From a virus (lineage: Duplodnaviria; Heunggongvirae; Uroviricota; Caudoviricetes), in the IMG/VR virus record IMGVR_UViG_3300029722_000070, positions 1-6,005 of that record: a DNA stretch of 6,005 nucleotides; one strand, 5' to 3'. Every line of letters begins with the position of its first letter. Positions within the stretch are counted from its first letter, which is position 1. The notes under the pieces are model-generated. The model was not told the origin of the DNA. It searched no databases and was given only the letters and a program-made list of their open reading frames with translations. Made by a program: the position numbers and the translations under genes. This document shows, in pieces, positions 1-6,005 of the stretch.

Positions 1-213
1 CATTTGCGCTGTCACTTTCGGTACCGGTGACACCGGTTCACTTTCACCAGCCTGAATCAGCCACCACATCGAACCCTTGTTATCCGCTTCACCGCGGCGC
101 TTCAGTTTCCACAGTTCGTTGACCGCATCTTCACGGCTGATTCCAAGGCGGGCCGCCACTACCTGTGAAGAGGCTCTTTTCAGTGCTTTCAGTGCGTCAA
201 ATACGGTTTCCAT
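1..213 (-). CDS. Small hypothetical protein, possibly a winged-helix DNA-binding protein at the Ren position downstream of P; the 3' end runs off the left edge of the window
   Basis: ATG at 213-211 (complement) with GGAGGA 7 nt upstream (complement of 221-226). Reading frame is open to position 1. Translation begins METVFDALKALKRASSQVVAARLGISREDAVNELWKLKRRGEADNKGSMWWLIQ. It sits where ren lies in lambda, directly after the P-like gene. Not in the ORF track because no stop falls inside the window. Confidence 0.5.
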   Translation of the reverse strand, partial: METVFDALKALKRASSQVVAARLGISREDAVNELWKLKRRGEADNKGSMWWLIQAGESEPVSPVPKVTAQM

Positions 214-246
214 TAAAATTTCCTCCGACAAAATCGTTTCTCAGAT

Positions 247-909
247 TCAAATAAAACCAGCTGCCTTCCGGCGTTCGTATTCCTGTTTCAGCCGTTCAAT
301 TGGCGTTGGCCCTTGCGGGTGTTTCGCCCCTTCCAGTTGTCGTCGCACTGGCGGAACACTCATCCCGTTACCAACATGCTTTGCCCATTTCGTCAGTTGC
401 CGTTCCGCAAGTCGTTTTAACTCACCCTGCGTCATCTGGCGCTCAATCCCTCTGGTACGCATTTCGAGGCAGATGTGGTACAGCACAGGCTGTGGCCACG
501 GGTATTTATCACTCCCGTCGTATCGCCAGGATTCATTGCGCCAGCGCCGGTACTCTTCCATCACTGCATCCACCGTAAGACCAAATGGATTTGCCCCACT
601 CTCCGAAATCAGTGCAACAAACTCAGCCAGGTCCGGGGGCCACGTTTCACCCGCCCGGCAGCGGTCCATGCACTGACGGCAGACCAGCCGGATTTGCTGT
701 TCAGTCATCGTGCCAATCTGGGCAATCCATAGCTTCGAAGGTGCGGCCCCGTTCTTCTGTGTCCAGCGGTTCGAATACACCTCCCCCATAAGCTCCCACA
801 GCTTCCAGGCCGTTTCCGTTGCTGATAAATCCGTTGTCACGTTCCCACTGTTCGCGTGCTGCCCGGATTTCCTGAACTGCCCGTGATGCCGTGCCACCTG
901 ATGCTGCAT
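247..909 (-). CDS. Replication protein P-like (DnaB helicase loader, lambda P family)
   Basis: 220-aa ORF with AGGGGG Shine-Dalgarno about 7 nt upstream of the ATG at 909. From recalled sequence, the C-terminal half (YPWPQPVLYHICLEMRTRGIERQMTQGELKRLAERQLTKWAKHV) aligns with lambda P (YPWKSNAHYWLVTNLYQNMRANALTDAELRRKAADELVHMTARIN), and the central IGTMTEQQIRLVCRQ segment aligns with lambda P GITTMEQVNAGMRVAR. Position after an O-like gene fits. Confidence 0.78.
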   Translation of the reverse strand: MQHQVARHHGQFRKSGQHANSGNVTTDLSATETAWKLWELMGEVYSNRWTQKNGAAPSKLWIAQIGTMTEQQIRLVCRQCMDRCRAGETWPPDLAEFVALISESGANPFGLTVDAVMEEYRRWRNESWRYDGSDKYPWPQPVLYHICLEMRTRGIERQMTQGELKRLAERQLTKWAKHVGNGMSVPPVRRQLEGAKHPQGPTPIERLKQEYERRKAAGFI

Positions 910-1429
910 GGCTTACCCCCTTGCTGACTGGTTTTACCTGTGCCCTGACGTGCTGCACGTGGCGGGCAAATTTCTGCTCCCACTGAACCTGCGTGAAAAC
1001 CTTCCCCTCCGCCATCCAGTAATCCCGGAATGCGGCAAGCTCTGCAGGTGTAAATTCCGGCTCAGGCAGAGCCATACCCCACACTGCTGCCCGTTGTCGA
1101 AAATCCGACGACGGCTGCCAGACAGTAGTCATCAAAAATTTCCCGATCGGTTCGCTCAGGCCGTCCAGGTATTCAGGTTCGGCTGTCTGCAACGGCGCAC
1201 CATGCGACTCACCGGTTGGAGCACTCTCGCGCATGCGCGTGTTATGTGTGGGGTTTAATTCTGTATCTGTATCTTTATCTGTCGTGACTTGTCGTGACTT
1301 GTCGTGACAGATGCGTGACACGTCGTGACTCATCGTGACAATCAGCATCATATTTCCGCAGCTTTTCGCGCTCCCGCTGCGCTCTCTTGCGCTCTGCCGG
1401 GGATTTTGCCGTTTGCGAAACGTTACCAT
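701..1429 (-). CDS. O-like replication initiator, C-terminal portion; in a different frame from the N-terminal ORF, so probably a frameshifted gene or pseudogene
   Basis: 242-aa ORF. The first 60 or so residues are low-complexity and read through the repeat array, but from about residue 80 the sequence looks protein-like (FLMTTVWQPSSDFRQRAAVWGMALPEPEFTPAELAAFRDYWMAEGKVFTQVQWEQKFARHV). No convincing ribosome-binding site of its own. It overlaps ORF 1275-1754 by 155 nt and overlaps the P start by 209 nt in another frame. Confidence 0.4.
   Translation of the reverse strand: MVTFRKRQNPRQSARERSGSAKSCGNMMLIVTMSHDVSRICHDKSRQVTTDKDTDTELNPTHNTRMRESAPTGESHGAPLQTAEPEYLDGLSEPIGKFLMTTVWQPSSDFRQRAAVWGMALPEPEFTPAELAAFRDYWMAEGKVFTQVQWEQKFARHVQHVRAQVKPVSKGVSHAASGGTASRAVQEIRAAREQWERDNGFISNGNGLEAVGAYGGGVFEPLDTEERGRTFEAMDCPDWHDD
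1260..1283. repeat. Four tandem hexamers (TCTGTA TCTGTA TCTTTA TCTGTC), AT-rich, abutting repeat array A
   Basis: Read directly from the sequence at 1260-1283, preceded by TTTAATT. An AT-rich tract next to iterons is the usual layout for a DNA unwinding element. Confidence 0.5.
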
Positions 1430-1748
1430 TGTCCTCTTTCAGCACCTGACGTTTTTCCCATCCGGAAATAAGGTCACCATCCAGAACCCGCCCCTGCATT
1501 GCATGCAAAATTGAATCAATTACGTCTTCCGTCACATCAAGCGCACTTGCTAAATCTTCCGTCGTGACATCAATGTGACCACGTAGTGACACGCCGTGAC
1601 ATGTCGTGACATTTCGTGACGCACTCACCAGAAGGTGGATATACACCGCCATCACTGTTGCGATTGGCTGTCCTGAGACCCTGGCAATGGTTCGCCATTT
1701 GGGATCATTTGGCATGTCATGCCACAATCTGAGCCAGGCATTAGCCAT
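1275..1748 (-). CDS. O-like replication initiator, N-terminal (putative origin-binding) portion
   Basis: ORF track gives 1275-1754 from a GTG; the in-frame ATG at 1748-1746 has a GAGGTG Shine-Dalgarno just upstream and is preferred. It lies between the CII-position gene and the P-like gene, as O does in lambda. Both repeat arrays fall inside it. It ends at a stop inside repeat array A. Confidence 0.6.
   Translation of the reverse strand: MANAWLRLWHDMPNDPKWRTIARVSGQPIATVMAVYIHLLVSASRNVTTCHGVSLRGHIDVTTEDLASALDVTEDVIDSILHAMQGRVLDGDLISGWEKRQVLKEDNGNVSQTAKSPAERKRAQREREKLRKYDADCHDESRRVTHLSRQVTTSHDR
1284..1339. repeat. Iteron-like array A: six GTGAC cores (consensus TCGTGAC) phased at 10-11 bp
   Basis: GTGAC begins at 1284, 1294, 1304, 1315, 1325 and 1335 (spacings 10, 10, 11, 10, 10). 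The first three units are exact copies of GTCGTGACTT. Helical-turn phasing inside an initiator gene suggests initiator binding sites (ori). Confidence 0.7.
1564..1620. repeat. Iteron-like array B: six GTGAC cores phased at 10-11 bp
   Basis: GTGAC begins at 1564, 1575, 1586, 1596, 1606 and 1616 (spacings 11, 11, 10, 10, 10). Same core and phasing as array A, about 280 bp away, within the N-terminal coding part of the O-like gene. Confidence 0.7.
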
Positions 1749-1816
1749 ACTCACCTCATCTGATACCGAACTTTACCCTCGAACATCCGGAAGAAATCCG
1801 GCATGAATATTGTTGG

Positions 1817-2242
1817 TCAATGCACGACAACAGCATTACCAGGCTGACCACCACTGTTAGTCAGGGTGCCCCAGGCGATCGCCGCTGCGACAAAATCATC
1901 CACATCTTTCACCAGCCGATCCCTCCGTTCGACGATCTCACGGTAATATTCAGAGCTGTGACTGCGCATACGGGCCACCAGCAGAGGCGGCATTGCCTTT
2001 TCGATCGCCGGTAACAGAGCCTGAATTTTTTCAACAGCATCAGGGGTGTCTTTATCCAGCCAACGGAAAATTTTCTGGGTATTACGAGCCAGGGCTTCCG
2101 GATGGCTGTCGTCGTACAGTTCCGGGAACGTCATTCCCAGCTCGAAATACGCTTTGGTAATTTTCGCAGCCGGTACTTTTTCGCCGTCCGGATGCGCCCA
2201 GACATTCATCGCCATGCGGATATGTTCATGTTTGATTTTCAT
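1817..2242 (-). CDS. YdaT-like protein at the CII position
   Basis: 141-aa ORF whose ATG (2242-2240) overlaps the stop of the upstream cro-like gene (2239-2241) by 3 nt, which suggests translational coupling. It occupies the slot between cro and the replication genes. The MKIKHEHI N-terminus and length match my recollection of the YdaT family; this is from memory, not a search. Confidence 0.65.
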   Translation of the reverse strand: MKIKHEHIRMAMNVWAHPDGEKVPAAKITKAYFELGMTFPELYDDSHPEALARNTQKIFRWLDKDTPDAVEKIQALLPAIEKAMPPLLVARMRSHSSEYYREIVERRDRLVKDVDDFVAAAIAWGTLTNSGGQPGNAVVVH

Positions 2243-2454
2243 GAATCATTCTTTCCTTCGTTCGAGGTGCTATCCTGCTTCTTGTAAAGTTCTGGGTTGT
2301 ATTTCAATTCACCGTTAGTAATTTCATCCAGTTCCATTGCGCGAAGTTTGGGAATAACTGCTTTCCACCGCACAACAGCCACATGTGAAATTCCAAGAGC
2401 CTCAGCTACTAGTCGCTTTTTTTTGAAATAGCGCAGAACATCATCTTTGAACAT
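2239..2454 (-). CDS. cro: Cro-like HTH regulator (P22 Cro / YdaS family)
   Basis: 71-aa ORF with AGGAGAG Shine-Dalgarno 5-6 nt upstream of the ATG at 2454. The sequence MFKDDVLRYFKKKRLVAEALGISHVAVVRWKAVIPKLRAMELDEITNGELKYNPELY aligns along its length with P22 Cro as I recall it (MYKKDVIDHFGTQRAVAKALGISDAAVSQWKEVIPEKDAYRLEIVTAGALKYQ). It is divergent from the repressor gene. Confidence 0.85.
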   Translation of the reverse strand: MFKDDVLRYFKKKRLVAEALGISHVAVVRWKAVIPKLRAMELDEITNGELKYNPELYKKQDSTSNEGKNDS

Positions 2455-2483
2455 AAAACTCTCCTGTTATTTCGAGCAGAAGG

Positions 2484-2497
2484 GTAACAATAGTTAC
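2484..2497. promoter_or_regulatory. Candidate operator O1 (GTAAC-AATA-GTTAC)
   Basis: 14-bp site with perfect 5-bp inverted-repeat arms, read directly from the sequence. Confidence 0.55.
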
Positions 2498-2531
2498 ATA
2501 ACAATGTCAACCATAGCAACATCACTTGGTA

Positions 2532-2545
2532 GTAACATTGGTTAC
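2532..2545. promoter_or_regulatory. Candidate operator O2 (GTAAC-ATTG-GTTAC), abutting the repressor start codon
   Basis: Same arms and spacer length as O1, centred 48 bp from it, ending one base before the ATG at 2546. Confidence 0.55.
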
Positions 2546-3220
2546 ATGAAAAACACTATCAGCGAACGTATTCGGAATCGTCGAAAAGACGTTGGATTAA
2601 CCCAACAGCAGGTTGCGAAAGCAATCGGCATATCTCGTGTATCCGTAACAAAATGGGAAAATGGCTCTTCAAAACCTGACGGTGAGAATTTGTATCTACT
2701 GTCAAAATTGCTTTCCAAATCTCCTGAATGGATTCTTTATGGAAAGGACTGTCACGATAAAACCGATGATCTGCGTCTGAATCAGTACCCTTACATTAGT
2801 GACAACATCGCCCGGTTGCCCGTTTTAACGTGGGAACAGGCTGGTTATTGGGATATGAGTTGTCCAGTAACCAAGATTCCTGGTATTAAGAACTGGGTTG
2901 ATGTCATGACAAAAACCGCTGAAAACTCTTTTTTATTGCATGTTGAGGGAGATGCGATGACAAACTCTAACGGCCTCCCAACCATCCCCGACGGATCTAC
3001 CGTGCTGATTACACCATGCTCAAGTAACATTAGAGAACTGGTGGGAAAAATAATCTTAATCCAATTGGAAGGAACGCCAAACGTAACACTAAAAAAAGTT
3101 GCGATTGACGGACCAAACATCTATTTGTTGTCACTGAATCCGCTTTACAAACCCATCGAACTGAATGGTGGTTACACCATTAAAGGTAAAGTTTCACAAA
3201 TACATCAATACTTAGACTGA
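2546..3220 (+). CDS. cI: CI/C2-type immunity repressor (N-terminal HTH, C-terminal LexA-like S24 domain) with Ala at the nucleophile position
   Basis: ORF track gives 2447-3220. I chose the ATG at 2546 because MKNTISERIRNRRKDVGLTQQQVAKAIGISRVSVTKWENGSSKPDGENLYLLSKLLSKSPEWILYGKD aligns from residue 1 with the P22 C2 N-terminus as recalled (MNTQLMGERIRARRKKLKIRQAALGKMVGVSNVAISQWERSETEPNGENLLALSKALQCSPDYLLKGD), and because it leaves both operators intergenic. The C-terminal domain aligns with lambda CI and P22 C2: SFLLHVEGDAMT against SFWLDVQGDSMT, and VTLKKVA against ATFKKLV. No obvious Shine-Dalgarno, which fits a leaderless transcript as for lambda cI. Confidence 0.9.
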   Translation: MKNTISERIRNRRKDVGLTQQQVAKAIGISRVSVTKWENGSSKPDGENLYLLSKLLSKSPEWILYGKDCHDKTDDLRLNQYPYISDNIARLPVLTWEQAGYWDMSCPVTKIPGIKNWVDVMTKTAENSFLLHVEGDAMTNSNGLPTIPDGSTVLITPCSSNIRELVGKIILIQLEGTPNVTLKKVAIDGPNIYLLSLNPLYKPIELNGGYTIKGKVSQIHQYLD

Positions 3221-3225
3221 GTCAG

Positions 3226-3251
3226 AACCCGCATTCATTGCGGGTTTTTTA
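3226..3251 (+). terminator. Rho-independent terminator downstream of the repressor gene
   Basis: Stem AACCCGCA (3226-3233) and TGCGGGTT (3239-3246) with loop TTCAT, followed by TTTT (3247-3250). Begins 6 nt after the repressor stop codon. Confidence 0.75.
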
Positions 3252-3294
3252 TGCCCTCAAATGTACCTTTTGTAACATTGCATTGACTCGAAAG

Positions 3295-3308
3295 GTAACT
3301 CTTGTTAC
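3295..3308. promoter_or_regulatory. Candidate operator O3 (GTAAC-TCTT-GTTAC), OL-like, with a possible rightward early promoter
   Basis: Third copy of the GTAAC-N4-GTTAC palindrome, flanked as GGTAAC...GTTACC. A GTAAC half-site lies at 3272-3276 and a TTGACT hexamer at 3284-3289. It sits after the repressor terminator and upstream of the rightward small gene at 3490, the position OL/PL occupies relative to cI in lambda. Confidence 0.5.
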
Positions 3309-3489
3309 CCTAACAACATACCAACCCACCCCGCCCCACAGAACGCCGGGCAATACTGCGAGTTACCAGGCAGTGGTCAGGGGTTAAGTAGCCAGCCCGA
3401 GGCGTAAGAACATGACGGCAGGGTTCAACTTTAACTATGCAGCAGGTTTTTGTTCCGCTCCCCCGGCGTTAAGGGGAAATGAGGTCAGC

Positions 3490-3642
3490 ATGGATACTAT
3501 CGAGCTTGGCAACAGCGAATCTCTGGTATGCGGCGTGTTTCCCAACCAGGACGGCACGTTTACCGCGATGACGTATACCAGAAGCAAAACGTTTAAAACG
3601 GAAGCTGGCGCGCGTCGCTGGTTAGCAAGAAACTCTGACTGA
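3490..3642 (+). CDS. Small hypothetical protein, YdaF-like (DUF1391-type prophage protein)
   Basis: GAGG at 3481-3484, 5 nt before the ATG at 3490. 50-aa product MDTIELGNSESLVCGVFPNQDGTFTAMTYTRSKTFKTEAGARRWLARNSD. The ORF track starts the same frame at 3412 (76 aa); I prefer the shorter form for its ribosome-binding site and its resemblance to the roughly 50-aa Rac YdaF as I recall it. First gene right of the OL-like operator. Confidence 0.6.
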   Translation: MDTIELGNSESLVCGVFPNQDGTFTAMTYTRSKTFKTEAGARRWLARNSD

Positions 3643-3740
3643 TGAAGGTTAGTAATTAAAGAGTTCTCCACAGGCGAAGTGGAATACGTTCGCCGGACAC
3701 GGGTAAGCATTCGGCATGCTCTTTAACAATCTGGGTATTC

Positions 3741-4187
3741 CTAACCACAAAGGAATCGCATCAATTTGGATTTTGCAGACAGTTTCTCTTGTTGTTCTAC
3801 GGAGATTCCTATTTTGATCTGGGTTTTTAAGATTGCGATATCTTTAAGCGACGACCAAATATTATCATCTGTTTTTTCCAGGAGCTTTAACTGCATTTTC
3901 AATTCCGAATCGGAATATTTTTCTGCATCATCATAAAGCTGCAGATATTCTGCGGATTTTCTCATTGCGTTACCTGACTTTTGTCCGAATCCGTAAATCG
4001 TTTGAACGGTTGCTATCACAACAATGAGAACTCCAGAAACTTCAGGAATAAATCCACCAATGACAGATGAACCGAGGATAATACTCACCACTGAGAAAAG
4101 TTTATCGAGACGACCAGTCGCTACAGAGAATAGTTGTTCAAGAAAATAACCATATAAAACCCTGTCAAGAATATCATCCCGGTCCAT
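3741..4187 (-). CDS. Small membrane protein with two predicted transmembrane helices; candidate superinfection-exclusion protein (SieB-like)
   Basis: 148-aa ORF with AGGTGA 7 nt upstream of the ATG at 4187. Two adjacent hydrophobic segments (LFSVVSIILGSSVIGGFI and VSGVLIVVIATVQTIYGF) followed by a charged, helix-prone C-terminus. It is oriented against its neighbours, as sieB is in the Rac prophage. No competing ORF on the other strand. Confidence 0.6.
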   Translation of the reverse strand: MDRDDILDRVLYGYFLEQLFSVATGRLDKLFSVVSIILGSSVIGGFIPEVSGVLIVVIATVQTIYGFGQKSGNAMRKSAEYLQLYDDAEKYSDSELKMQLKLLEKTDDNIWSSLKDIAILKTQIKIGISVEQQEKLSAKSKLMRFLCG

Positions 4188-4246
4188 ATATCATCACCTG
4201 CTTGTTTGATTGTTGCTGTTCCCCCTCTCCTCTGAAGGAGCTGGAG

Positions 4247-4435
4247 ATGGTTTTGGTCGAATGTTTTTCTCAGGTATATGTTTCCTGGTATTCGGAATGT
4301 CCGCCCTGTCCGCAGGCTTACCAGTACCTGAACAATTCTTTTGAACCACCATATAAAACACCTTCCTGTTGTTGGGGATATCCAGATTATACAGATTTCC
4401 TGTTATTGGGGAATGACGGAAACCACCTCGCCTGA
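4247..4435 (+). CDS. Candidate small cysteine- and aromatic-rich protein (62 aa); uncertain
   Basis: GAAGGAG Shine-Dalgarno (4234-4240) 6 nt before the ATG at 4247. Product MVLVECFSQVYVSWYSECPPCPQAYQYLNNSFEPPYKTPSCCWGYPDYTDFLLLGNDGNHLA has 6 Cys in 62 residues. The ORF track lists the same frame from 4202. No homolog recognised and codon usage looks atypical, so it may be spurious. Confidence 0.2.
   Translation: MVLVECFSQVYVSWYSECPPCPQAYQYLNNSFEPPYKTPSCCWGYPDYTDFLLLGNDGNHLA
4363..4412. repeat. Pair of 16-bp direct repeats TTCCTGTTRTTGGGGA
   Basis: Copies at 4363-4378 (TTCCTGTTGTTGGGGA) and 4397-4412 (TTCCTGTTATTGGGGA), one mismatch, start-to-start spacing 34 bp. They fall in different frames of the 4247 ORF, so this is a DNA-level repeat rather than a peptide repeat. 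Confidence 0.5.
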
Positions 4436-4665
4436 CGTGGTTAAAAGCAGGCACACAACACGAAAGCGCACGGCGAGATTCCTTTGCATATAAGGCTTGT
4501 CGTTAAATTTCTTCGACCGTGCACTTCCGGTTGTGGCAGTCCGCGAAATGGCGCGGCGGTAAGTATGGCTGGGGCTTCCTCCATTGCTCCAGAAAATGCA
4601 CCGGGTCGTCAGGTTGACCATACGCTTAAGTGACAGCCCCGCCACAATACCCATGCGTAGTCTTT

Positions 4666-4709
4666 GGTGGCATCAGTTCTACTCCGTGACTGCTCTGCCA
4701 CCCTTTTTA
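4666..4709 (+). terminator. Candidate intrinsic terminator or RNA 3' hairpin
   Basis: GGTGGCA (4666-4672) pairs with TGCCACC (4696-4702), with an inner CAGT/ACTG pairing, followed by CTTTTT (4703-4708). The loop is long (23 nt), so the call is weak. Confidence 0.3.
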
Positions 4710-4814
4710 AAGTGAATTTTGTGATGCGGTGAATGCGGCTATGCGCACGCGGAACAGTTAAAACCGTAAAGTGGTCTTTTACGGGGCGTAACGGGCATCC
4801 TTCTGTATTCCGGC

Positions 4815-4854
4815 GTTAATTGTTAACTGGTTAACGTCACCTGGAGGCACCAGG
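4815..4854. promoter_or_regulatory. Cluster of GTTAA(C) motifs plus a short hairpin upstream of the 4891 gene; candidate regulatory site
   Basis: GTTAATTGTTAACTGGTTAAC at 4815-4835, with inverted arms TTAAC (4823-4827) and GTTAA (4830-4834). Hairpin CCTGG-AGGCA-CCAGG at 4840-4854. Lies 35-75 bp upstream of the ATG at 4891. Confidence 0.3.
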
Positions 4855-4890
4855 CACTGCATCACAAAATTCATTGTTGAGGACGCGATA

Positions 4891-5079
4891 ATGGAAACGT
4901 TATTACCAAACGTTAATACGTCTGAAGGTTGTTTTGATATTGGAGTTCTGCTCAGTAACCGGGAGTTTACTGAAGATGCCATTAAGATGAGAAAATATGA
5001 ACCTTATCTTCTCAATGATAATTCCATACTTTCCAGAATTGCCCTTCTTGAACTTGGTATTATCGGAGAACAGCAGTGA
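4891..5079 (+). CDS. Small hypothetical protein (62 aa), early-operon gene
   Basis: GAGG at 4879-4882, 8 nt before the ATG. Product METLLPNVNTSEGCFDIGVLLSNREFTEDAIKMRKYEPYLLNDNSILSRIALLELGIIGEQQ. No homolog recognised. Confidence 0.5.
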   Translation: METLLPNVNTSEGCFDIGVLLSNREFTEDAIKMRKYEPYLLNDNSILSRIALLELGIIGEQQ

Positions 5080-5096
5080 CTTCAGCATTTGCACTG

Positions 5097-5240
5097 ATGA
5101 TGACCGTTTTTCTTATAACGGGCGAGCCACAGACTGTGATTACCGGAATTTTTGCCAGTAAAGAATCCCGCCTCCAGGCAAGAGACAAGCAAAAAATTTC
5201 TGGTGAATGCCTCCCGTTAAAAAAGTATCGCTGTACCTGA
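5097..5240 (+). CDS. Candidate small protein (47 aa from the ATG at 5097, or 54 aa from the GTG at 5076), possibly Kil-like
   Basis: The GTG at 5076-5078 overlaps the TGA stop of the preceding gene (5077-5079, GTGA overlap), suggesting translational coupling. Product MMTVFLITGEPQTVITGIFASKESRLQARDKQKISGECLPLKKYRCT has a hydrophobic N-terminus and a basic C-terminus. Absent from the ORF track, presumably for length. The Kil comparison rests only on size and position. Confidence 0.3.
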   Translation: MMTVFLITGEPQTVITGIFASKESRLQARDKQKISGECLPLKKYRCT

Positions 5241-5357
5241 ATAACGAAACACCGGCTGGATAACCCGCCAGCCATATTAACACCATACCAACGGATTAAA
5301 AATGCCAGCAATGGCAGGGATTCGTTCACCCTGAAATCTGTCATGAGGTTAAAACAA

Positions 5358-6005
5358 ATGAGTAAAGTCTTTATTTGCGCCGCTATTCCTGACGAACTGG
5401 CAACAAGGGAAGAAGGCGCTGTGGCTGTAGCCACAGCCATTGAAGCTGGCGACGAACGCCGTGCTCGAGCAAAATTTCACTGGCAGTTCCTGGAACATTA
5501 TCCGGCTGCTCAGGACTGCGCTTATAAATTTATTGTCTGCGAGGATAAACCTGGCATACCCCGCCCTGCCCTCGATTCATGGGATGCTGAATATATGCAG
5601 GAAAACCGCTGGGATGAGGAGTCTGCTTCTTTTGTCCCGGTTGAGACTGAATCCGATCCGATGAACGTCACTTTTGACAAGCTGGCCCCTGAAGTACAGA
5701 ACGCTGTCATGGTTAAGTTCGACACATGTGAAAACATCACCGTTGATATGGTTATTAGCGCACAGGAATTGTTGCAGGAAGACATGGCAACATTCGACGG
5801 ACATATCGTTGAAGCGTTGATGAAAATGCCAGAAGTTAACGCCATGTATCCGGAGCTTAAGTTGCACGCCATTGGGTGGGTTAAGCATAAATGTATTCCT
5901 GGTGCTAAATGGCCCGAAATTCAGGCAGAGATGCGCATCTGGAAAAAACGTCGCGAAGGTGAACGCAAGGAAACCGGAAAATACACGTCTGTTGTTGATC
6001 TCGCC
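5358..6005 (+). CDS. Hypothetical acidic protein, 5' partial view (at least 216 aa, continues past the window)
   Basis: GAGG at 5345-5348, 9 nt before the ATG at 5358. Frame is open through 6005. Product begins MSKVFICAAIPDELATREEGAVAVATAIEAGDERRARAKFHWQFLEHYPAAQDCAYKFIVCEDKPGIPRPALDSWDAEYMQENRWDEE. Not in the ORF track because it has no in-window stop. The listed ORFs 5440-5664, 5522-5872 and 5577-5888 overlap it in other frames and look spurious. Confidence 0.7.
   Translation, partial: MSKVFICAAIPDELATREEGAVAVATAIEAGDERRARAKFHWQFLEHYPAAQDCAYKFIVCEDKPGIPRPALDSWDAEYMQENRWDEESASFVPVETESDPMNVTFDKLAPEVQNAVMVKFDTCENITVDMVISAQELLQEDMATFDGHIVEALMKMPEVNAMYPELKLHAIGWVKHKCIPGAKWPEIQAEMRIWKKRREGERKETGKYTSVVDLA

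Follow-up and report, generated by a model that had tools for sequence, protein, structure and literature searches.

Why should the replication initiator gene of a lambdoid prophage be split between two reading frames at an array of 10-bp repeats? The question is raised by a 6,005-nucleotide (nt) stretch of viral DNA (Caudoviricetes; positions 1 to 6,005 of IMG/VR record IMGVR_UViG_3300029722_000070), here called the window, in which an O-like initiator gene is interrupted and is followed by a gene for a P-like helicase loader. An initial annotation had proposed slipped-strand inactivation in a decaying prophage, a sequencing artefact in the repeats or, less likely, a programmed frameshift. 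We consider it highly probable that a single extra origin-type repeat unit has shifted the frame and broken the prophage initiator gene. The parts of the gene on which the argument turns are the following (aa, amino acids):

701..1748, minus strand: O-like replication initiator gene, 1048 nt, a frameshifted pseudogene; intact alleles are 1038-1068 nt
1275..1748, minus strand: N-terminal frame, 157 aa and a TAA stop, ending ...HLSRQVTTSHDR*
701..1273, minus strand: C-terminal frame, open from 1429 and shifted by +1 from the N-terminal frame
1279..1339, minus strand: array A, six GTCAC-core units at 10-11-bp spacing in the interdomain linker; five in the intact alleles examined
1299..1308, or equally 1289-1298 (identical copies), minus strand: extra 10-bp unit GTCACGACAA, the sole difference from the EC2 allele
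1256..1279, minus strand: A/T-rich hexamer tract GATAAA GATACA GATACA GAATTA, directly after array A, encoding DKDTDT
1564..1620, minus strand: array B, six GTCAC-core units at 10-11-bp spacing, within the region coding for the N-terminal domain

Both open reading frames (ORFs) described in the initial annotation are present: a minus-strand ORF at 1275..1754, 159 aa when counted from GTG and closed by a TAA stop at 1275-1277, and ORF 701..1429 (242 aa, minus strand), which is open across the repeats. The first was correctly placed at its end, 1275, but not at its beginning: the initiator likely starts at ATG 1748, as in RefSeq, preceded by GAGGTGA at 1751-1757, and GTG 1754 falls within this Shine-Dalgarno sequence. 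Similarly, the two frames do meet at array A, but the premature TAA lies in the first A/T-rich hexamer, directly past the last repeat unit and not within a unit. That RQVTT is read across neighbouring units in both frames, as had been noticed, is explained by the 10-bp period of the array, which moves every additional copy of the unit into the next frame. The gene length of 1048 nt is 1 mod 3, so losing one unit or gaining two restores the frame, in agreement with the suggestion that the two frames could be fused by gain or loss of units.

Which unit is in excess can be read from alleles that are intact. The window gene differs from the intact allele of EC2 (1038 nt, 345 aa) by one 10-nt insertion and zero substitutions, and conceptual removal of one 10-bp unit, which had been proposed as a check, yields the intact 345-aa protein that already exists in EC2. 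Where the window reads GTCACGACAA-GTCACGACAA-GTCACGACAG, every intact allele aligned reads GTCACGACAA-GTCACGACAG (O157 180-PT54, 1044 nt; JNE170426, 1038; EC2, 1038; O121 RM8352, 1068; JE86-ST05, 1038), and the other length differences among these alleles are multiples of 3 (hexamer units and one 6-bp indel). Array A has five units in the intact alleles of O157, O121, JNE170426, EC2, JE86-ST05 and E. albertii, against six in the window. The homologs have one gene with one unit fewer, not a standing two-gene arrangement with the same repeat count. The repressor protein and the DUF1627 pseudogene of EC2 are also the same as those of the window prophage.

Could the sixth unit be an error of assembly, the gene itself being intact? 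Positions 600-1900 of the window match the E. coli SCU-104 chromosome at 100% identity. SCU-104 alone among 5,426 complete E. coli genomes carries the exact allele over 261 nt (the next-best matches all span 251 nt), and assemblers can miscount tandem repeats, both of which would favor an error in SCU-104. However, seven contigs from separate samples (different ENA gut metagenomes and SRA (Logan) assemblies) match the window at 99.94-100% identity and have the six-unit array, and the exact 157-aa product is found in 44 index blocks of a 15-billion-protein collection and on at least 23 public contigs. The same gain has also occurred in another background: a 53-mer spanning three units is present in three O157:H7 genomes (ECP19-598, 17B6-2, and G5295), whose genes (1054 nt, annotated 'frameshifted') are otherwise identical to the common O157 allele but have gained the same 10 nt. 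Base-calling errors, moreover, do not typically take the form of a clean insertion of one whole unit. With the identical allele in seven independent assemblies, we regard a sequencing artefact as ruled out for practical purposes, its probability being close to nil. Together, the seven contigs and the O157:H7 genomes show that the six-unit allele is real, heritable and circulating. It is rare: of the roughly 337-370 complete genomes that have this type of array, 4 contain the three-unit 53-mer, and a search of complete genomes for alleles one unit shorter or one unit longer found none. The phage collection held no three-unit allele, its sole match being a related intact O gene at 90.7%.

We propose that two perfect tandem units, GTCACGACAA-GTCACGACAg, have become three, likely by replication slippage or by misalignment between identical neighbouring units. 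The added 10 bp would shift translation by +1, the TAA would be met five codons on, and the product would be a 157-aa N-terminal fragment without the DnaT-like domain and tail. The initiator would then most likely be non-functional and the prophage unable to start its own replication. Within a circulating E. coli lineage the mutation is inherited, and on at least two occasions it has arisen or been transferred. P, with its own Shine-Dalgarno sequence and its ATG at 909, 366 nt downstream of the premature stop, may still be translated. The initial suggestion of slipped-strand inactivation of the initiator in a decaying prophage agrees with this, the window allele being that of EC2 plus one unit and the SCU-104 prophage carrying further lesions.

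If ribosomes bridged the break by a programmed +1 frameshift near AGA-TAA, the full-length initiator would still be made, with the 157-aa protein as a regulated second form. The shift needed is indeed +1, AGA followed by a stop loosely resembles prfB-type sites, and AGA is a rare codon in E. coli. However, no slippery P-site codon is available that would re-pair in the +1 frame (AGA to GAT), no stimulatory element was noticed around the stop, although no search aimed at one was made, the three-unit 53-mer is rare (4 of about 370), and the other alleles inspected are single ORFs with two tandem units. The split allele is the intact allele plus an insertion, so the split architecture is not conserved. 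With single ORFs in all homologs inspected save the rare +10-bp alleles, and with no shifty site at AGA-TAA, programmed frameshifting seems to us extremely unlikely.

The interruption falls between two recognizable domains. The C-terminal frame (701-1273) matches the Pfam model PF17948 DnaT (62 bits, E=4.6e-17; cut-off 25 bits), with the DnaT-like single-stranded DNA (ssDNA)-binding domain encoded at about 938-1135, so the downstream frame is protein-coding, as the initial annotation had proposed. Residues 197-266 of the intact allele align with solved DnaT chains (e.g. PDB 4OU6, 6AEP; E=1e-20). Against the NCBIfam DnaT equivalog the score is 92.6 bits, below the cut-off of 201, so the phage protein is not DnaT itself, and unlike in E. 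coli DnaT (primosomal protein I), the domain in the window is the C-terminal half of a phage initiator. The N-terminal frame matches phrog_3729, 'replication initiation protein' (E=5e-88), and both frames match phrog_1408, the N-terminal one over profile positions 4-140 (E=3e-36) and the C-terminal one over positions 147-302 (E=2e-76); residues 1-326 of the intact allele cover positions 4-302 of that profile. Beyond DnaT, neither the 157-aa N-terminal product nor the intact 345-aa allele matched any Pfam family. The N-terminal part gave no match to the lambda O family (the Pfam phage replication protein O model), so 'O-like' is a label by position and function only, and against NCBIfam TIGR01714 (phage replisome organizer, N-terminal) it shows a weak resemblance over residues 5-131 (17.3 bits against a cut-off of 49.8, E=0.0042). 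The intact O analogue, as its sequence predicts, is a single 345-aa protein with an N-terminal initiation domain, a hydrophilic linker, and a C-terminal DnaT-like domain. The N-terminal frame is presumed to hold an iteron-binding 'replication initiation protein' domain and a basic linker, and with the PHROG halves and the DnaT match on either side, the frameshift parts the presumed DNA-binding domain from the DnaT-like domain.

Parted domains might still cooperate if an internal start in 701-1429 allowed the C-terminal part to be translated by itself and to assemble in trans with the N-terminal fragment, so that the origin would still fire. On several contigs, gene-calling programs predict a second ORF of 206 aa that includes the DnaT domain, and the C-terminal frame is intact and identical to that of the functional allele. 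However, this identity shows recency, not selection, no homolog inspected has a two-gene arrangement, and inspection by eye, rather than by a systematic scan, revealed no convincing Shine-Dalgarno sequence before the candidate internal starts at ~1319-1351 or at the first in-frame ATG after the stop. We judge a functional split initiator very unlikely.

The repeats themselves resemble those of a replication origin. There are twelve GTGAC cores in one orientation, six at 1284-1339 and six at 1564-1620, and exact copies of TCGTGAC number 9 against 0.72 expected, a count reached in 0 of 200 shuffles. Tandem Repeats Finder reports period-10 arrays at 1280-1339 and 1586-1620 and a period of 6 at 1260-1282, and the local GC minimum (0.325, at 1240-1279) abuts array A. 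Two features of iteron-type origins are present: helically phased direct repeats in one orientation and an adjacent A/T-rich tract. We infer that the arrays are most likely the iterons of the phage origin, because the order of iterons followed by A/T-rich DNA matches that of ori-lambda inside the O gene. The number of GATAAA/GATACA hexamers, which encode DK/DT in the linker, differs in frame among alleles (3, 4, 5 or 9); the tract doubles as an in-frame microsatellite and as the A/T-rich part of the presumed origin. In array B, the intact alleles L028 and L029 lack two units at the equivalent of ~1575-1600, an in-frame difference of 21 bp and 7 aa ('TCHGVSL'), so the copy number of array B varies too and that N-terminal part tolerates indels.

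Array A also lies at a boundary between exchangeable gene halves. Matches to Rac-SA53, to PPompW phages and to DUF1376-type genes start at query positions 621-644 (about 1257-1280 in the window), so the array is where homology to these other initiator types ends. At least five unrelated N-terminal domain types are combined with the same DnaT-like half and P across about ten enterobacterial genera (loci L008-L022); they begin MANAWLRLW..., MAALPYMQLY... (DUF1376), MSIDALRWAKK..., MARIRTVKPEFW..., and ...EPYRKVKITMWDDPKF.... At least three N-terminal types carry short repeats of their own at about nt 380-490, among them ACCCAAA repeats in the PPompW type and GGAAGGGA repeats in the Klebsiella phage type; for the DUF1376 type, a simple k-mer count found no clear array. 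At 903-1973 of L028 (E. coli 90-3040), the same N-terminal domain, iterons, and hexamers are joined to an unrelated C-terminal half, the joint lying exactly after the hexamer tract; this gene is annotated 'phage replisome organizer' (356 aa) and has no P gene downstream.

Lambda offers a precedent for an origin embedded in the O gene, with iterons and then an A/T-rich tract (PMC7466680). The window gene is like lambda O and ori-lambda in placing origin-type repeats between the N-terminal DNA-binding and the C-terminal parts, with an A/T-rich tract after them, in having a lambda-P-type helicase loader (PF06992) as the next gene, and in having a recombination module boundary at the origin. It is unlike lambda O in that its N-terminal part has no Pfam match and its C-terminal domain is DnaT-like, and unlike lambda in having two arrays, one of them inside the region coding for the N-terminal domain, and an O/P overlap of 209 nt. 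The window repeats are short GTCACGA cores phased at 10-11 bp, whereas lambda iterons are longer than cores of this type. The Stx phages 933W and P27 have six iterons in the O gene rather than four, and the two extra ones add 13 aa in frame to a protein that works (PMC7466680). As in those phages, the number of iterons varies inside the initiator ORF and the length of the protein changes with the origin, but the 10 nt of the extra unit in the window disrupt the reading frame and leave a truncated protein.

Repeats within an ORF can also serve as switches. In surface genes of Neisseria and Haemophilus, slipped-strand changes in pentamer or tetramer repeats toggle the full-length product, and the window shares with such contingency loci tandem units that are not a multiple of three inside an ORF. 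The iterons could by analogy form an adaptive, low-frequency reversible switch, in which the OFF fragment would remain on the origin and might exclude phages of matching origin specificity; the 157-aa fragment and the iterons would silence the prophage and hinder superinfection, and the O/P overlap would couple synthesis of initiator and loader. Such a switch would fit the same gain in two allele backgrounds, the presence of two (ON) or three (OFF) tandem units in otherwise identical alleles, the persistence of the OFF allele in a circulating lineage, and the retention of the entire N-terminal domain in the truncated product; if true, it would account for the survival of the OFF allele in a gut E. 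coli lineage and for its recurrence in O157:H7. Phages with a lambda replicon are reported to be excludable by fragments of the lambda origin (PMC3349717). However, the window and its relatives have only two or three perfect units and no sign of rapid reversible switching. Classical contingency loci have far more repeat units. OFF alleles occur in only 4 of about 337-370 complete genomes with no other copy numbers, no mixed populations or revertants were observed, and the prophage's other pseudogenes are in keeping with simple decay. Apart from recurrence and persistence, nothing in the sequences speaks positively for a switch or for a split protein. The repeat probably exists for DNA binding rather than for switching, and we consider a switch very improbable, whether taken in general or in the form just outlined.

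Several considerations nevertheless weigh against our preferred explanation, the breaking of the initiator by an extra origin-type unit in a decaying prophage. We infer the loss of function from the separation of the domains only, and the two fragments might act together. The binding of the repeats by the initiator and the activity of the origin are presumptive. Gene conversion, in place of two separate slippage events, could have put the insertion into two backgrounds. The frameshift in the portal gene that contributes to the picture of decay is taken from the SCU-104 assembly, so that the extent of decay is less certain than the lesion in O. Finally, a co-resident prophage might complement the defect, as has been proposed for the lambdoid prophages of E. 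coli O157 Sakai, which have lambda-type loaders, bear assorted inactivating lesions, persist, and may be complemented by co-residents (PMC2669165). Unlike the case described here, an iteron-gain frameshift is not reported in that survey.

RefSeq already flags the gene as a frameshift, and tandem-repeat slippage, iteron polymorphism within an initiator gene, and prophage decay are all known phenomena. The literature on this initiator type, its iterons, and the O/P overlap yielded nothing specific, only the lambda and Stx iteron work and the O157 defective-prophage survey. What is newly given here is the instance with a mechanistic explanation, together with a likely correction of the P start, which concerns these features:

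247..909, minus strand: P-like helicase loader, 220 aa from ATG 909 (RefSeq 247-708, 153 aa)
916..922, minus strand: Shine-Dalgarno sequence AAGGGGG, 6 nt upstream of ATG 909
701..909, minus strand: dual-coding O/P overlap, 209 nt, with the P frame +1 relative to the O frame

An overlap of 209 nt between the O frame and the start of P had struck the initial annotation as unusually long. This overlap is supported by the conservation of ATG 909 and its Shine-Dalgarno sequence, by purifying selection in the P frame, and by coverage of a PHROG profile, while the RefSeq start at ATG 708 would reduce it to 8 nt (ATGACTGA). The P frame is open for 68-85 codons upstream of the RefSeq-type ATG in all 20 homolog loci examined, which include Citrobacter, Enterobacter, Salmonella, Pluralibacter, Phytobacter, Scandinavium, and a Klebsiella phage. 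An upstream ATG (909 in the window) with a Shine-Dalgarno sequence 6-8 nt before it is present in 19 of 19 sequences from about ten genera, the window counted, the Shine-Dalgarno sequence being AAGGGGG in the window and of the GGAGG type in other genera. In the 120 nt before ATG 708, 58% of pairwise codon differences are synonymous in the P frame and 6.8% in the O frame, and 23 of 40 P-frame residues are invariant; in a control region coding for P only, the corresponding values are 65% in the P frame and 5-7% in the non-coding frames. Further upstream, from -171 to -121 relative to ATG 708, the O frame leads (40% versus 14% synonymous).

Profile searches point the same way. The 220-aa form of P scores 211 bits against PHROG 109, 'P-like helicase loader' (profile 18-236, E=3.6e-62), compared with 185 bits for the 153-aa form (profile 74-236), and the 67-residue extension alone gives E=1e-3. 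P also matches lambda P in Pfam (PF06992, 57.9 bits, cut-off 26); with phmmer and with a 16-sequence profile, lambda P aligns only from residue 81/101 onward, so that this comparison has no direct bearing on the extension. Public databases hold calls of 153, 180, and 220 aa for the P protein. A start at 708 with an 8-nt overlap was rejected on the conservation of the upstream ATG and Shine-Dalgarno sequence, the substitution pattern, and PHROG 109. From these comparisons, the O/P overlap is real and conserved, with P probably starting at 909 and the RefSeq start likely mis-set. The last ~40 initiator codons (701-828) have 6.8% synonymous differences, like a non-coding frame, yet in each of the 19 sequences the frame stays open up to an identical stop (ATGAnTGA). 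The tail of the initiator seems, on this pattern, to be overprinted on the P N-terminus, its last ~40 codons evolving as the P frame dictates. The initiator and P both match one PHROG profile of 482 positions, phrog_15931, the former over 1-347 and the latter over 279-482, which suggests that this family contains an O-P fusion ORF (needing a +1 shift in the overlap) or mixes both proteins.

At the ompW site lies a ~45-kb lambdoid prophage, of which the window is the immunity and replication region. In SCU-104, RefSeq annotates this region as follows:

minus strand: Cro/CI regulator and YdaT-family protein
701-1748, minus strand: DnaT-like ssDNA-binding domain-containing protein, 'frameshifted'
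247-708, minus strand: replication protein P
1-213, minus strand: partial DUF1627 gene
plus strand, opposite to the initiator operon: LexA/CI-type repressor

The early replication operon runs in the order cro, ydaT-like gene, O-like gene, and P-like gene, and the SCU-104 prophage contains integrase, excisionase, exonuclease, dicB, lysis, head, and tail genes. Its other lesions are a frameshifted portal gene, fragmented tail-fibre genes, and the partial DUF1627 gene, and they fit ordinary decay. The portal and tail-fibre lesions lie outside the window, at 2168654-2171238 and 2183801-2184985 of SCU-104, and could be assembly errors. The partial DUF1627 gene is followed by a complete one (SCU-104 2149070-2150178) and is a remnant of a local duplication; since EC2 has this remnant too, it predates the initiator frameshift. 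On the plus strand, the DicF antisense small RNA is encoded at 4652-4703 (Rfam RF00039, full length, 58.9 bits against a gathering score of 48), in an otherwise unannotated stretch upstream of dicB (4891-5079, plus strand), an arrangement of the Qin/dic type.

For the genome, the extra unit means that the ompW-site prophage most likely cannot start its own replication and is to be treated as defective or helper-dependent. The P loader of a large group of prophages probably starts ~200 nt upstream of the RefSeq start, within the initiator gene, which would correct a widespread annotation and is relevant to expressing or modelling the O-like and P-like proteins. More generally, the locus points to a fragility built into initiator genes that carry their own origin: the number of iterons can change freely only if the added length is a multiple of three, and since DNA binding would need the 10-bp helical phasing, each slippage by a single unit would be a knockout.

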